Sequence record: NZ_CP040186.1
Length of the DNA stretch: 64,000 nucleotides
DNA from: a plasmid
Reading direction: 5' to 3' (one strand)
In this document: positions 50,800 through 56,510 of the stretch, piece by piece
Layout of the letters: each line of letters opens with the position of its first letter
Position numbering within the stretch: the first letter of the stretch is position 1
Notes under the pieces: generated by a model
What the model was told of the DNA's origin: nothing
The model's input: the letters and a program-made list of their open reading frames with translations, nothing else
Databases searched by the model: none
Made by a program: the position numbers and the translations under genes

Positions 50800-51193
50800 T
50801 CCATCAGCGCCAACAAATGGTGGTTTCGTCGGGGATGCGCTCCAGGTTCAGCCCGGCAAACTGGCGCAGGATCGTGGTTTCGTACAGCGCTTCCTCCATC
50901 GCTGGATCGCTGTAGCCGAACCAGTTCTGCAGCAGATGCACACGCAGCATCGCCATCAACGGGTAGGCCGGACGGCCACCTTCACCCTTCGGATAATGTG
51001 GCTCGATCAAAGCAATCAAGCCCTTCCACGGCACCACCCGATCCATCTCGATCAGGAACAACTCCTTGCGGGTTTGCTTGCGCTTGCCAGCGTACTCGGC
51101 GTCGGCGAAGGTCATCTGCTTCATCGGGAAACTCGGTGGGTGGGGTCGCGGTATTTTGCCAAATCAGAAAGTCTTTTTCAGAGTTTCCCTAGG
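50800..51193 (-). mobile_element. IS5-family (Pseudomonas-type) element remnant, left copy, truncated
   Basis: Transposase N-terminus MKQMTFADAEYAGKRKQTRKELFLIEMDRVVPWKGLIALIEPHYPKGEGGRP... (50804..51124). Terminal sequence CTAGGGAAACTCTGAA at about 51180-51193. Same element, inverted, at 55912. Confidence 0.6.
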
Positions 51194-51231
51194 CTGACAA
51201 GCCAAGCGCTGGATCGCAACCATCCATCACC

Positions 51232-52101
51232 TTATCCAGCTAGATCTGCCTCCTCCAATAAGTGCCGCACAAATCCCGGCGGGTGCAGATTTCCGGGAGG
51301 TTTGCGCCAGATCAGTTGGAGACGCTTTTCAAGCCCCGGGATGGGAAGAGCTACCAGCGCGCCACTGCGAACTTCGTCTTGTACTGCGGAAGCCATCACC
51401 AACGACACGCCGAGTCCCGCCCTCACTGCTTGTTTGACTGCCTCGGTGCTGCCTAGCTGCATACCGCTGCGAGGCACGCCCAGTTCGCCAAAGTATTCGG
51501 TCAGAAGCCGTCCGGTACCGCTACCCGGTTCACCTCCCAGCATCGGCAGGTCCACCAGACGATCACGTTCTATGCACCCTGCTTCAGCCAGCGCATGGTC
51601 GGGGCTGACGATAAGCACCAGCGGCTCGACCCGCCAGAGGCGGTGTTCGAAGTCGGGGTGAGGTAGCCACCATTCCATGATCGCGGCGTCGAGCTGGCCC
51701 GCCAGTAGCTGGTCGGCCACATCCGGGTTGGCGGCGATGCGCAGATCCACCTCGCCCCTCTCATTTGCGGTCGTCAGATAGTTGCGCACGAATGGCTGGA
51801 GAAGGTAGGTGCCGATGTTGGAGCTGGCCCCGACGCGCTCACGATTGCCATGCAGGGCTTCTAGCGCCCGGGCGTGCATGTCGAGCAAGGCGGTCGCATG
51901 CGGCATGAAGGCCAGCGCCCGTGTGGTAGGCTGGCAGCCGCTACGACTGCGCTGCACCAGCGTTACGCCGACCTGCTCTTCAAGCTTCTGCAAGTGCTGC
52001 GACACCGTCGGCTGGGCCAGCCCCAACGCCCTCGCCGCGCTCTGAAAACTGCCTGTTTGAACGATCGCTACCAGGCTCTTCAGCCAGACCGGATTCAACA
52101 T
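51232..52101 (-). CDS. ptxE: PtxE, LysR-family regulator of the phosphite oxidation operon
   Basis: LysR HTH ([37 protein letters not shown]) plus a substrate-binding domain. Last gene of ptxABCDE, overlapping ptxD by 7 nt. Confidence 0.7.
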
Positions 52102-53105
52102 GCGGCAGGCTCGGCCTTGGGCAGACGGTTCGCAGCGTTGATTGGGCGCGCACCTGCCAATACCTGGATGATGTTCTGCGCTGCACAACGTTCAATCTCC
52201 AGGCGCACCGCGCGCACTGCCGACCCTATGTGCGGAGTGAACAGCGTATTCGGATGCGCGAGCAGCGCAGGATCGATCAGCCGCGGCCGGTCCGCGCGAG
52301 CCCAGTCTTCCATTTCGAATACATCCGCCGCATACCCGCCGAGCTGGCCTCGCTCAAGCGCCGCGAGCACGGCGGCTTCATCCACTACCGAACCACGACA
52401 GGGGTTTACAAGCAGAGCGCCCGGCCGTACGAGGGCAAGCAGCTCGGCGTTGACCAGATGCTGGGTATCGGCATTCAAGGGAAGCGCCAGCAGGATGAAG
52501 TCCGAGCTGGCGAAGAGTTCGCTGCACGCCACCTGGCGCAGGCCGAGCCGTTGCTCGGTTTGTGTATCCAGAGCCTTCGCCTCGTGGTACTGCAGGGTCG
52601 CGCCCCATCCCTGCAAGCGATCAGCCATGGCCAGTCCGATGGCGCCCATGCCAAGGATGCCGACCGTAGCGTTATCCAGCCCCGTGCCGTAGAACTGTGG
52701 TTGCCAGCCCTGGAACTCGCCAGAGCGGACGAACGCATCTGCTGCCCGCAGATGCCGCCCCAGCCCCACCGCCAGTCCGATCGCCAGCTCGGCAGTCGGG
52801 ACCGTCAACAGATCAGGCACGAAGGTCAGCCAGACCCCGCGGGCAGTACAGGCGTCCACATCGAAATTGTCGAAGCCCTTGAGCGCGCAGCCGACTACAC
52901 GCAGCTCAGGGCAGGCTTGAAGAAAGTCTGCATCGACCCGATCGGGCATGAACGCCATCATCGCCTGAGCATCGCGACAGCGGCGCAGAATTTCCTCGCG
53001 CGTCAGCGTGCTGTCGGTCTGGTTGGTCATCAGCTCGCAATGTGGCGCCAGCAGTTGCAGGATCTCATCGTGTACTCGGTGAGTTATAACGAGTTTCGGC
53101 AGCAT
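52095..53105 (-). CDS. ptxD: PtxD, NAD-dependent phosphite dehydrogenase
   Basis: 336 aa beginning [31 protein letters not shown]..., which I recall as essentially the Pseudomonas stutzeri WM88 PtxD sequence. D-2-hydroxyacid dehydrogenase fold with GMGAIG Rossmann motif. Confidence 0.8.
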
Positions 53106-53113
53106 GGTTTGTC

Positions 53114-53953: not shown

Positions 53954-54813
53954 ATCGTGGCGAAGTCGAGGCCGAGCAGCGATCCCATTTTGCGGATCAC
54001 ATCGTAGTCGGCGTCGGTGATTGGCGCGAAGGCCTCGGCCTTGAAGTTGCGCAGCACTTCGGGATCGTCGATACCGACGAATACATCCCGCACCTTGGTT
54101 TTCAGCTCGGGGCTCAGGTTCGAGCGCATCGCCCAGGGGTACTGGGGGTATTCGCCGCTGTAACCAAGTACTTTCACCTTGCTCGGATCGATTAGGCCAC
54201 GTTCGGCTACGTGATTGAAAATTACCTCCGACAGCCCACCCGCATCGGCGTTGCCGTTCGCCACGTTGACGGCAACGGCGTCATGCGTGCCCACAAAATA
54301 TTGTTCGTAGTCCTGCCCACCCGTCAAACCGGCCGTCTCAAGAAGCACGGTTTTGGGAATCAAATGGCTGGACGTCGATGCCCGGTCACCATAGGCCATC
54401 TTCTTGCCCTTAAGGTCGGCATACTCATTCACGCCTGACGCCACATTGGCGATAATCACCGAGCGATAGGTCGGCTTGCCGTCGATGACCATGGCAGCGA
54501 AGGGCTCGATGTCGCTTTTGCTTTTGGCCATGACGTAGGACAGCGGACCGAAATACGCCAGGTCGATACGGCCAAAGCGCATCGCCTCAATCATCGAGGA
54601 ATAGTCGGTGGTTACGATCAGCTGCACCTTCTTGTCCAGATGCTCTTCCAGATAATCCTTCAGCGGCTGGTTACGCTTGATCAGCTCGGAGGCGTTTTCG
54701 TCCGGCAGCAGGGCAACCTTTAGCACATCCGGATCGGCATCGGCCGCTAGGGCGGACAAACTTGAAACAGCGGACAGCAAGCAAGTCAATAAGAGCGCGG
54801 ATAAGCGTTTCAT
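53950..54813 (-). CDS. ptxB: PtxB, periplasmic phosphite-binding protein (PhnD-like)
   Basis: Signal peptide plus PhnD-like SBP domain. ATGA overlap with ptxC. Confidence 0.7.
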
Positions 54814-55637
54814 CGGGACTTCTCCAGTGAAGGTTCGAGCATGACAGGTGGTTCAGCCGGAGCATTCGCTGGCTGAGTCGTAGAGCGGCCTGCATAGATG
54901 CGCTCAAGCTGCGCATCGGTGAGTTCCGAGGGCGCGGCATCGAAAACGATCTGAGAATCGGCCAGCCCGACGACGCGATCGGCGAAGCGGCGGGCATATT
55001 CGAGTTGATGCAGCGAAACGATGGCGGTGATGCCGTCTTCCTTGCAGATGTCGCGCAGCAATCCGAGAACACGGACCGAAGTGGCCGGGTCGAGACTGGC
55101 TACCGGCTCATCGGCCAGAATGATCGCCGGCTGTTGCGCTAGCGCACGCGCGATGCCTACCCGCTGCTGCTGGCCACCGGACAGTTTGTCCACCCGGCTT
55201 AGCGCCTTGTCTGCCAGACCGACCCGAGCGAGGCAACTGAGCGCAATCTCCTGATCGGCACGCGGCAGAGGAAACAGCGAGCGGAGCGTGTTGTGAAAGG
55301 CCAGCCGACCGGTAAGCACATTAGCCAGTGCGCTTTGACGTTCGATTAGCTGGTGGTGCTGAAAGATCATGGCGGTACGCCGACGATGCTGACGCAAGGC
55401 CGAGCCGCTGCCGAGCTCACCGAGTTCGCTGGTGACACTGCCGCCAGTGGGCGTGACGAGTCGATTGAGACTACGGAGCAAGGTCGACTTGCCTGCGCCC
55501 GAGAGACCAAGCAGCACGGTGAACTCACCACGCCGAAATGCAATCGAGGTATCGCGTAGGGCTGTCACGCCGCCTGGATAGACGACGCTCAACCGGTCGA
55601 CCCGCAGCACGGCGTCCTGTATCGGATGGGGCATCAT
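54810..55637 (-). CDS. ptxA: PtxA, ABC transporter ATPase (PhnC-like)
   Basis: Walker [13 protein letters not shown] signature LSGGQQQR, Walker B IILADEP. Confidence 0.75.
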
Positions 55638-55911
55638 TTGATCACCTTTCGCAATATTGCTGGCCGCACAATTGCGGTTCGCGATGCAAAGGATAGAAAT
55701 TCCTTGTTACCGCACTGCTTCTAAAGGATGACATTTCGATGAATACTTCGAATCTGCCGTAGCGGGGCGGCAAGCGAAGCCGTGGAAGAACGGGCGCAAC
55801 GTAGCGTCTTTCTTCACGCGGGATACAGGAGGCTTTGATTGATACTGCTGCGGATTCGCTACAGTAACGTTGGGCCAGAACGTAATGCCATCCAAGCAAG
55901 AGAGCGCACAC

Positions 55912-56510
55912 TAGGGAAACTCTGAAGAAGACTTCCAGATTTTGGCAAAATACCCGGATTCCACCCACCGAGTTTCCCGATGAAGCAGATGACCTTCGCC
56001 GACGCCGAGTACGCTGGCAAGCGCAAGCAAACCCGCAAGGAGTTGTTCCTGATCGAGATGGATCGGGTGGTGCCGTGGAAGGGCTTGATTGCTTTGATCG
56101 AGCCACATTATCCGAAGGGTGAAGGTGGCCGTCCGGCCTACCCGTTGATGGCGATGCTGCGTGTGCATCTGCTGCAGAACTGGTTCGGCTACAGCGATCC
56201 AGCGATGGAGGAAGCGCTGTACGAAACCACGATCCTGCGCCAGTTTGCCGGGCTGAACCTGGAGCGCATCCCCGACGAAACCACCATTCTCAACTTCCGC
56301 CGCTTGCTGGAGAAACACGAGCTGGCGGCCGGCATCCTCGCTGTCATCAATGGCTCTGGGCGACCGCGGCCTGTCGCTGCGCCAGGGCACCATCGTCGAT
56401 GCAACGCTGATCAATGCGCCCAGTTCGACCAAGAACAAGGACGGCAAGCGCGACCCGGAAATGCACCAGACCAAGAAGGGAAACCAGTATTATTTCGGCA
56501 GTGCGACCTG
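55912..56510 (+). mobile_element. IS5-family element remnant, right copy (inverted relative to 50800..51193), truncated with internal frame changes
   Basis: Starts CTAGGGAAACTCTGAAGAAG. Transposase 55980.. has the same N-terminus as the left copy. Reading continues to ...[15 protein letters not shown] and then homology ends. Confidence 0.6.

Follow-up and report, generated by a model that had tools for sequence, protein, structure and literature searches.

The 64,000-nt stretch of plasmid sequence NZ_CP040186.1 that was analysed here (the window) very probably carries, at 51232-55637 on the minus strand, an intact Pseudomonas ptxABCDE operon for phosphite oxidation, set in a decayed composite transposon of the insertion sequence (IS) IS1384 on an enterobacterial plasmid of the IncFIB/IncFII type. 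The five genes all lie on the minus strand and are packed tightly, with neighbours overlapping or abutting:

54810-55637, minus strand: ptxA, ATP-binding cassette (ABC) transporter ATPase of 275 residues; TIGR02315, PhnC type, 327 bits (cutoff 266).
53950-54813, minus strand: ptxB, periplasmic phosphite-binding protein of 287 residues; TIGR01098 (phosphate/phosphite/phosphonate binding), 289 bits; match to PDB 5O2J.
53114-53953, minus strand: ptxC, PhnE-type ABC permease of 279 residues from the first GTG (275 residues according to the Prokaryotic Genome Annotation Pipeline, PGAP); TIGR01097, 295 bits.
52095-53105, minus strand: ptxD, phosphite dehydrogenase of 336 residues dependent on nicotinamide adenine dinucleotide (NAD), intact; matches the solved P. 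stutzeri enzymes.
51232-52101, minus strand: ptxE, LysR-family regulator of 289 residues, intact; LysR profile matches.

The profile-search matches of ptxA, ptxB and ptxC all exceed the curated cutoffs. PtxD was aligned with the P. stutzeri phosphite dehydrogenase chains (PDB 9PR0/4E5K-type), giving 719 bits (E = 4e-216) compared with 208 bits for the best glyoxylate reductase. The window protein differs from the crystallised engineered variant at 15 positions, all of them engineered, and carries the wild-type residue at each; the substitutions concerned are the thermostabilising ones D13E, M26I, V71I, E130K, Q132R, Q137R, I150F, Q215L, R275Q, L276Q, I313L, V315A, A319E, A325V and E332N. Furthermore, M53, K76, W134, Y139, R237, E266, H292, S295 and R301 are all present (nine of nine), and their roles, including that of the catalytic Arg237-Glu266-His292, are reportedly described in the van der Donk, Zhao and Nair literature. 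Comparison with solved structures, which separates phosphite dehydrogenase from glyoxylate reductase, settled the identity of PtxD as a predicted NAD:phosphite oxidoreductase of the type found in P. stutzeri WM88, not a generic 2-hydroxyacid dehydrogenase.

The binding protein PtxB matched the WM88 PtxB structure (PDB 5O2J) with E = 6.7e-171, five differences in 264 residues and 98% identity, vs. 1e-23 for HtxB. WM88 PtxB, which was crystallised with phosphite, binds it with a dissociation constant of 50-240 nM and binds phosphate and methylphosphonate 100- to 1000-fold more weakly (PMC5700983). At a Stutzerimonas locus (L006), PtxB has the WM88 crystal sequence and PtxD is identical to the window PtxD. 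With a PtxB-clade binding protein, a PhnE-type permease and a PhnC-type ATPase in one operon, PtxABC is a predicted phosphite importer. Among the individual proteins, PtxE WP_010466239.1 is common to p602815-NR and the P. mandelii JR-1 plasmid, and PtxC WP_010466252.1 also occurs in Pseudomonas plasmids.

One could instead suppose that the cluster serves phosphonate use through a generic D-2-hydroxyacid dehydrogenase and a PhnCDE importer. NCBIfam holds no PtxD-specific model, and the best profiles for the window PtxD are those of glyoxylate reductase, far below their cutoff (225 vs. 455 bits); the transporter genes match PhnC and PhnE equivalogs, and older annotations read phnCDE and 'glyoxylate/hydroxypyruvate reductase B'. 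The PtxD scores, the full set of required residues and the ligand preference of the close relative of PtxB all count against this supposition, to which we give almost no credence. An earlier reading of the window from its letters alone (the sequence-only reading) had named the five genes ptxABCDE and likened PtxD to the WM88 enzyme. Both assignments held: family matches, structure-sequence matches and PtxD residues agree, and the residues missing from the generic dehydrogenase that the reading had allowed for are there. Its description of the operon as G+C-rich was also borne out, with values of 0.57-0.65 over 51000-56000 vs. 0.29-0.50 in the backbone at 44000-47500.

The operon was also said to be flanked by inverted, truncated copies of a single IS5-family element. 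This element proved to be the Pseudomonas IS1384, which could be aligned over 373 and 587 nt in two arms:

50816-51188, minus strand: left IS1384 arm (IS5 family), nt 373 to 1, with the left inverted repeat (IRL) and the first 103 transposase codons; outer end missing.
51189-51192, no strand: CTAG, IS5-type target tetranucleotide beside the IRL of the left arm, flanking and outside the IS.
55911-55914, no strand: CTAG, target tetranucleotide beside the IRL of the right arm, flanking and outside the IS.
55915-56500, plus strand: right IS1384 arm, nt 1-587, transposase out of frame through a 2-nt deletion near 56354.

Positions 50816-51163 and 55941-56288 are 99% complementary, and the inverted repeat, 378 nt long and approximately 98% complementary overall, is far beyond chance and reaches the CTAGGGAAACTCTGAA termini at 51154-51192 and 55911-55949. 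The open reading frames (ORFs) of both arms start with the same MKQMTFADAEYAGKRKQTRKELF... sequence. The identical N-termini and shared ends noted by the sequence-only reading were thus confirmed, with the correction that the CTAG at each end belongs to the flanking target rather than to the IS; in locus L044, native-type sequence runs on past the equivalent of the CTAG at 51189-51192. Both IRLs (GGAAACTCTGAA...) face the operon, the left one facing ptxE, and both transposase genes read outward. The left arm shows one mismatch in 373 nt to the complete 1190-bp IS1384 of the P. mandelii JR-1 plasmid, and the right arm shows 12 differences in 587 nt to the PGAP-named IS1384 of the same plasmid; PGAP calls the arm element 'IS5-like element IS1384 family transposase', and the left-arm ORF gives an N-terminal match to the IS5 transposase model NF033581. 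The right arm is a hybrid: over ~45 nt from its start it follows the diverged arm of the complete transposon described below, and from there on it is canonical IS1384; its IRL sequence is identical to that of the JR-1 right arm. Neither arm retains the right inverted repeat (IRR) or the C-terminal portion (two thirds or half) of the 326-residue DDE transposase, and the right arm is frameshifted as well. Both copies are fragments and not functional members of the family. As in a composite transposon, the cargo lies between two copies of the same IS, here inverted IS1384 fragments with the IRL inward; intact outer IS ends and a working transposase are absent from the window.

Related ptx loci (given L numbers) are of three kinds: some are IS-less, some are truncated as in the window, and some are complete. 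At a length of 9.08 kb, the complete element consists of an IS1384-like arm split by a full sense-oriented group II intron, ptxABCDE, and an intact canonical IS1384; the diverged arm is 91% and 82% identical to IS1384. This form is plasmid-borne in P. mandelii JR-1 (NZ_CP005961) and chromosomal in P. abietaniphila, P. gorinensis and Pseudomonas spp. ANT_H4 and MPB23, and is partly visible in three further species. In the complete loci (L003, L009, L010, L013, L014 and L016), outer ends and transposase are present, the ends are identical throughout while the flanks differ, and the inner junctions are CTAG plus IRL on both sides. Perfect CTAA/CTAA direct repeats bound the element in three independent contexts (L003, L009/L014 and L013), and the fourth (L010/L016) has CTAG/CTAA.

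When the empty site of the JR-1 insertion was sought in PLSDB, only JR-1 itself was found, and evidence for the empty site was therefore drawn from what deletion of the element restores. In P. abietaniphila (L009), deleting the element and one CTAA restores a 410-residue AmiC-like ORF, whose Amidase_3 match (residues 170-388, profile positions 1-173 of 174) crosses the junction at residue 362/363. On the JR-1 plasmid (L003), the same deletion restores the hairpin AAAGCCC-CTAA-GGGCTTT. For P. abietaniphila and Pseudomonas sp. ANT_H4, the predicted uninterrupted targets would read ...GGATTCATCTCTAACGCACAGG... and ...GCTGCGAAGCTAAGAATCACC.... As judged from these comparisons, transposition of the complete form as a unit, with a 4-bp duplication, is demonstrated in silico.

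These data also bear on the possibility that the two IS fragments are unrelated insertions beside a resident operon and that the composite appearance is coincidental. The window arms have neither an outer end nor a target duplication, so unit transposition is not demonstrable from the window alone. Nevertheless, the complete elements, known from at least four flanking contexts, have the inner junctions of the window, CTAA is duplicated beside them and an amidase ORF is restored on deletion; moreover, many draft genomes contain contigs of ~5.05-5.12 kb that end within both arms (L022, L029 and L032), as expected of a repeat-flanked unit. We consider independent insertion very improbable. The composite origin claimed by the sequence-only reading thus stood, on the strength of complete copies with 4-bp duplications, whereas the capture that it placed on an enterobacterial plasmid happened in the Pseudomonadaceae. 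The duplications themselves, which the reading had proposed to seek outside the IS copies, are impossible in the window because both outer IS ends are gone, and are present as CTAA in the relatives.

Two further observations concern the complete form. The MPB23 chromosome contains the element twice (L010 and L016, at 0.77 and 4.09 Mb) with identical flanks on both sides; these twin copies probably arose when a larger element containing them was duplicated, and not through two separate transpositions. In addition, the intron of the complete transposon lies in the sense orientation, and splicing could restore the transposase mRNA of that arm.

In the window, each arm is cut by an identifiable element:

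50605-50815, plus strand: remnant of ISPst3 (IS21 family), istB 3' end and right terminal repeat region ending ...GCGCCAACA; cuts the left arm.
56501-57054, plus strand: 5' fragment of a group II intron, domains I-IV region, starting GTGCG directly after IS1384 nt 587.

At nt 373 the left arm meets the right end of the inserted ISPst3, which cuts it off there. Over 50605-50815, identity is 100% to istB ends annotated as ISPst3 in Pseudomonas fulva and in Citrobacter plasmids, and comparison with L086 defined where the element ends. The same ISPst3/IS1384 junction, with 623 nt of ISPst3, occurs in a Stutzerimonas metagenome-assembled genome (L012). On the right, the Rfam model RF02012 (group-II-D1D4-7) matched 56555-56703 with 122.7 bits (E = 2.7e-26, gathering score 34); the window yielded no RF00029 match, no domains V/VI and no reverse transcriptase ORF for this intron. 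P. aeruginosa p382 carries the same intron fragment.

Several readings of these junctions were rejected. The segment 50818-57054 is not a discrete 6.24-kb unit shared with p382: the left junctions lie 2 nt apart with different partners, and the supposed right end is merely the start of a Tn1721-type repeat in the window. The end of the right arm is not the intron site of p382 and JR-1 either, as that intron sits 9 nt upstream and a second intron starts at 56501. Two group II introns, one of the D1D4-2 type with ltrA and one of the D1D4-7 type, thus insert 9 nt apart (56491/56492 and 56500/56501), both within a conserved 11-residue motif of the IS1384 transposase gene (L002 13675-15524; L003 11796-13649).

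The ptxE-side arm is broken, in independent contexts, at nt 371 (joined to codon 12 of an IS66 tnpC), nt 373 (joined to the ISPst3 end) and nt 374 (joined to the interior of a trmA fragment); the breaks map to 50816 in the window, 8001 in L002, ~10291 in L008, L011, L020 and L021, and 10286 in L006, L018 and L019. A break at nt 369 belongs to a 449-nt deletion derivative of the trmA form. This is the L006-type junction, whose GGGGTG... flank was tried as a Tn3-family repeat and rejected, no transposase or partner repeat being found downstream. Three unrelated breaks within 4 nt are not a chance pattern; the insertion of ISPst3 might have come first, with the two remaining junctions left as scars of repair.

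The lesions made by ISPst3 and the intron arose in the Pseudomonadaceae, given their presence in Stutzerimonas and P. aeruginosa p382. The sequence comparisons place the capture of ptxABCDE by IS1384 in this family too, and indicate that the enterobacterial plasmid received a copy already in decay. The window copy would descend from the complete transposon after gene conversion of its right arm, which we propose because the first 45 nt of that arm are shared with the diverged arm. The overall identity of the arm to canonical IS1384 speaks the other way (98% vs. 91% for the right arm of the complete transposon), and independent assembly of the window copy is the alternative. Whether by descent, as we prefer, or by separate assembly, the transposon in the window is now dead and immobile, having lost both outer ends and both transposase genes. 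The operon would move today only with the plasmid and through IS26/ISKpn26 rearrangements nearby. The common Klebsiella IncFIB/IncFII plasmids carry a block that has been shortened by IS26 to ~50663 and has lost 56934-57288, with ISKpn26 at 56933; the window form, which keeps 56934-57288, looks ancestral to the Klebsiella form.

The IS-less Pseudomonadaceae loci may point to an additional route of movement. They contain a 4.67-kb ptxABCDE segment with constant ends and unrelated flanks (L025, L030, L035, L036, L038, L041, L042, L043 and L045, with ends at locus positions 5175-5195 and 9840-9866). Each end of the segment falls within a 9-6-9 motif, with GNCNGCTTY-TGGCCG next to ptxA and TGGCCG-GTTAGCGAC next to ptxE, and these ends correspond to ~55911-55917 and 51252-51255 in the window, so that the upstream end of the window operon (CTAG, 55911-55914) coincides with the cassette boundary. 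Joined 9-6-9 motifs are found intact nearby (L019, position 4805; L041, position 244, a perfect palindrome). PtxE of the IS-less loci ends ...HLLAG with a stop codon from the motif, and the window PtxE has a different C-terminal end. In seven of the IS-less ptx loci, the next gene encodes a 206-residue tyrosine recombinase with the catalytic domain only (PF00589); its positions, together with those in P. aeruginosa, are:

L035, 9893-10513: 206-residue recombinase gene.
L041, 9913-10533: the same.
L025, L030 and L045, 9896-10513: the same.
L036 and L042, 9913-10530: the same.
L087-L094 (P. aeruginosa), 4001-4621: the same.

The recombinase gene lies in a box of ~720 bp with inverted 9-6-9 copies on both sides, and both orientations of the box occur. 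At least 8000 relatives were found, almost all of exactly 206 residues and many on contigs of ~1 kb; the window itself does not contain the recombinase. In P. aeruginosa, the box stands between a HATPase_c_3/GmrSD_N pair and a PIN-domain gene, among defence-type genes, and the PIN-gene module is bounded by the same 9-6-9 sites. We therefore raise, tentatively and as a possibility that we rate well below even, that ptxABCDE, both before IS1384 captured it and in parallel, travelled among the Pseudomonadaceae as a 4.67-kb cassette without a transposase, inserted at asymmetric 9-6-9 sites and exchanged by a dedicated 206-residue recombinase. This would be an apparently undescribed system resembling integrons, shufflons or pdif modules that in P. 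aeruginosa also carries defence-type genes; a literature search found no description of such a mini-recombinase system. An excised cassette circle would carry GGCACTTAT-TGGCCG-CTAGTGTGC. Integron attC sites were considered for the cassette ends and rejected, as there is no TTRRRY start and the 9-6-9 site does not have the R''-L''/L'-R' structure. Separately, a 322-residue P. aeruginosa database protein (P0001) joins a LysR substrate-binding domain to a stretch that matches the recombinase at 100% identity; most likely the annotation reads through the junction between ptxE and the recombinase gene, showing the same adjacency in P. aeruginosa.

The Pseudomonadaceae-derived block spans 50605-57054 (6.45 kb) of the accessory region, slightly more than the extent of 50800-56510 first assigned to it. 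It is 99.98-100% identical to plasmids of Raoultella, Citrobacter, Enterobacter and K. quasipneumoniae. Conjugation now spreads the module, which in PLSDB is carried by at least 591 plasmids (records with at least 80% of a 6.5-kb query); they are mostly Klebsiella, conjugative and IncFIB/IncFII, and all five genes are called by PGAP. Among complete E. coli genomes the module was found in 7 of 5426, always plasmid-borne. When one genome was scanned for each species, PtxD turned up with 98-100% identity in approximately 40 species, mostly of Pseudomonas, Stutzerimonas and Halopseudomonas but also of Pantoea and Telmatospirillum, and the protein is 100% identical in 17 Pseudomonas/Stutzerimonas species representatives. 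The next tiers stand at 84-85% and then at 68% or less, an identity gap that reads as the signature of one recently spread allele.

Given the identity with the WM88 system, PtxB would capture phosphite in the periplasm, PtxC and PtxA would import it, and PtxD would oxidise it to phosphate with reduction of NAD+, under PtxE as the predicted LysR-type regulator of the operon. Such a function is plausible in enteric bacteria; expression in the enterobacterial host, control by the phosphate (Pho) regulon and a growth benefit on phosphite are inferred. Pho-regulon control of ptx in WM88 was reportedly described by White and Metcalf in 2004. The region in which the promoter would lie is retained:

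55638-55910, minus strand: ptxA upstream region, 273 nt, native, presumed promoter site; in IS-less Pseudomonadaceae loci, conservation reaches the CTAG.

The homology of these IS-less loci to the window extends to 55914-55917. Four observations nevertheless weigh against expression and benefit in the present hosts. A Pho-box scan upstream of ptxA returned TATTCATCGAAATGTCAT as the best site, with 10 of 14 positions, a score reached by 296 of 2000 shuffles (15%), and a scan of the same region gave no convincing sigma-70 site; it is because no promoter or Pho box was recognised there that expression in Enterobacteriaceae is kept as an inference. The window and the common Klebsiella variant differ at 12 codons, 11 of them nonsynonymously and one synonymously, compared with 39 synonymous and 23 nonsynonymous differences from an older Stutzerimonas allele. 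The 11:1 ratio, although the counts are too small for significance, gives no sign of purifying selection since the spread and is compatible with relaxed constraint. Finally, Klebsiella assimilates phosphite without PtxD (PMC5364233), so the marginal benefit of ptx may be small.

Taken together, these points suggest an alternative in which the operon is silent, hitch-hiking cargo in the Enterobacteriaceae, intact only through recent arrival, with an inactive Pseudomonas promoter and no selectable phosphite phenotype in Klebsiella or Raoultella. A literature search likewise found no phosphite phenotype reported for these plasmids. On the other side, none of the five ORFs is disrupted, hundreds of independent plasmid records from several genera annotate them as genes, and the full native upstream region has been kept. 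E. coli grows on phosphite when given PtxD and a Ptx-type (PtxABC) transporter (PMC5700983). The first characterisation of the WM88 ptx genes reportedly also relied in part on their expression in E. coli. We judge the silent-cargo explanation unlikely and favour a working operon.

Some allelic patterns were noted in passing. Recent variants of the operon differ almost solely by nonsynonymous changes (11:1, 12:2 and 5:2). Changes between PtxB alleles recur at positions 138, 155-172, 201-203 and 275 (window vs. L002, L003, L005, L006 and L039), and relative to WM88 the Klebsiella PtxB allele has 10 changes and the window allele five.

The block is part of a variable region at 47545-62271, as defined against the related IncFIB/IncFII backbone of p35657-1. 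To its left, 47545-50441 is G+C-rich and encodes a RelB/DinJ-like 432-residue protein, a helix-turn-helix protein and small ORFs; it was tried as further Pseudomonas DNA and rejected, as it matches backbone typical of the ~63-kb pOXA-48-like IncL plasmids. The ORFs at 56578-56976 (minus strand, over the intron fragment) and 50428-50670 (spanning the ISPst3 junction) were likewise rejected as genes, having no Pfam match. To the right, outside the ptx element, lie:

57051-57288, plus strand: Tn1721/Tn1722-type terminal inverted repeat (GGGGGAACCGCAGAATTCGGAAAAAATCGTACGCTAAG) with adjacent sequence; ends the Pseudomonas block.
57289-58486, minus strand: ISKpn26 (IS5 family), complete; ORF 57437-58417, repeats 57279-57305/58470-58496; PGAP name in L001 and L005.

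The group II intron gives way to the Tn1721-type end at 57051-57054. The repeat at 57051-57088 we take to be that of Tn1721, with which the genomic associations agree: the 240-nt piece matches more than 3000 enterobacterial plasmids, where it stands beside PAS-domain chemotaxis-protein genes. This 38-bp repeat and ~200 nt of interior sequence (57051-58486 region) are cut by the complete ISKpn26. Beyond it are two IS3-family orfA/orfB pairs, at 58414-59612 (minus) and 59657-60774 (plus), of which the first appears interrupted by the ISKpn26 end.

As it stands, a high-affinity system dedicated to phosphite assimilation in soil and water pseudomonads has become a stable passenger on large conjugative plasmids of the IncFIB/IncFII type that carry resistance and metal-tolerance genes in Klebsiella and related genera. 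If it is expressed, phosphite-rich settings (fungicides, fertilisers, corroding metal and wastewater) could favour its carriers, although co-selection is an idea only. The locus also offers a worked example of a composite transposon that was born in one family, moves as a unit and decays after crossing to another, with each truncation traceable to a named element; current understanding is unchanged by it.

Among known systems, the ptxABCDE operon of Pseudomonas (Stutzerimonas) stutzeri WM88, reportedly described by Metcalf and Wolfe in 1998, has the same five genes in the same order as the window. It differs in its replicon, a Stutzerimonas genome as opposed to an enterobacterial conjugative plasmid, and in its linked htx hypophosphite genes, which the window lacks. 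The Klebsiella IncFIB(K)/IncFII(K) module (p1_020143 and the JM45 plasmid) is 99.6% identical and has the IS1384 fragments on both sides as well as the ISPst3 remnant and the intron fragment; its PGAP annotation lists ptxD, phnCDE and a LysR gene, and it is shorter than the window form and differs by 12 codons. The module is mentioned in passing in Klebsiella genomics papers, and the PtxD EJK14408 (KPNIH20) appears in published alignments. The JR-1-type transposon has cargo 99.8% identical to that of the window, the same inner junctions and the same ptxE-side IS, but is complete, with CTAA duplications and a full intron, whereas the window lacks the outer ends and has a mostly canonical ptxA-side arm. 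A literature search found no description or Tn number for the IS1384 ptx composite.

More distant parallels exist. The P. aeruginosa PSE9 island PAGI-7 (Battle et al., 2008), as it is described in PMC12024412, has predicted ptxABCDE and mobility genes; going by that description, it was horizontally acquired like the window block but is chromosomal and in Pseudomonas. The chlorate-reduction composite transposons (Clark et al., 2013), as outlined in PMC10746228, likewise place oxyanion metabolism between IS copies, but with another IS, cargo and hosts, and serve as an analogy only. The Acinetobacter plasmid pCl107, from a clinical Gram-negative, carries a five-gene ptx module whose proteins are 38-64% identical to those of WM88 (PMC10117892), a separate operon lineage from that of the window and WM88. 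A WM88-type ptxABCDE plasmid module is thus already known, and the composite built around it is a textbook compound transposon.

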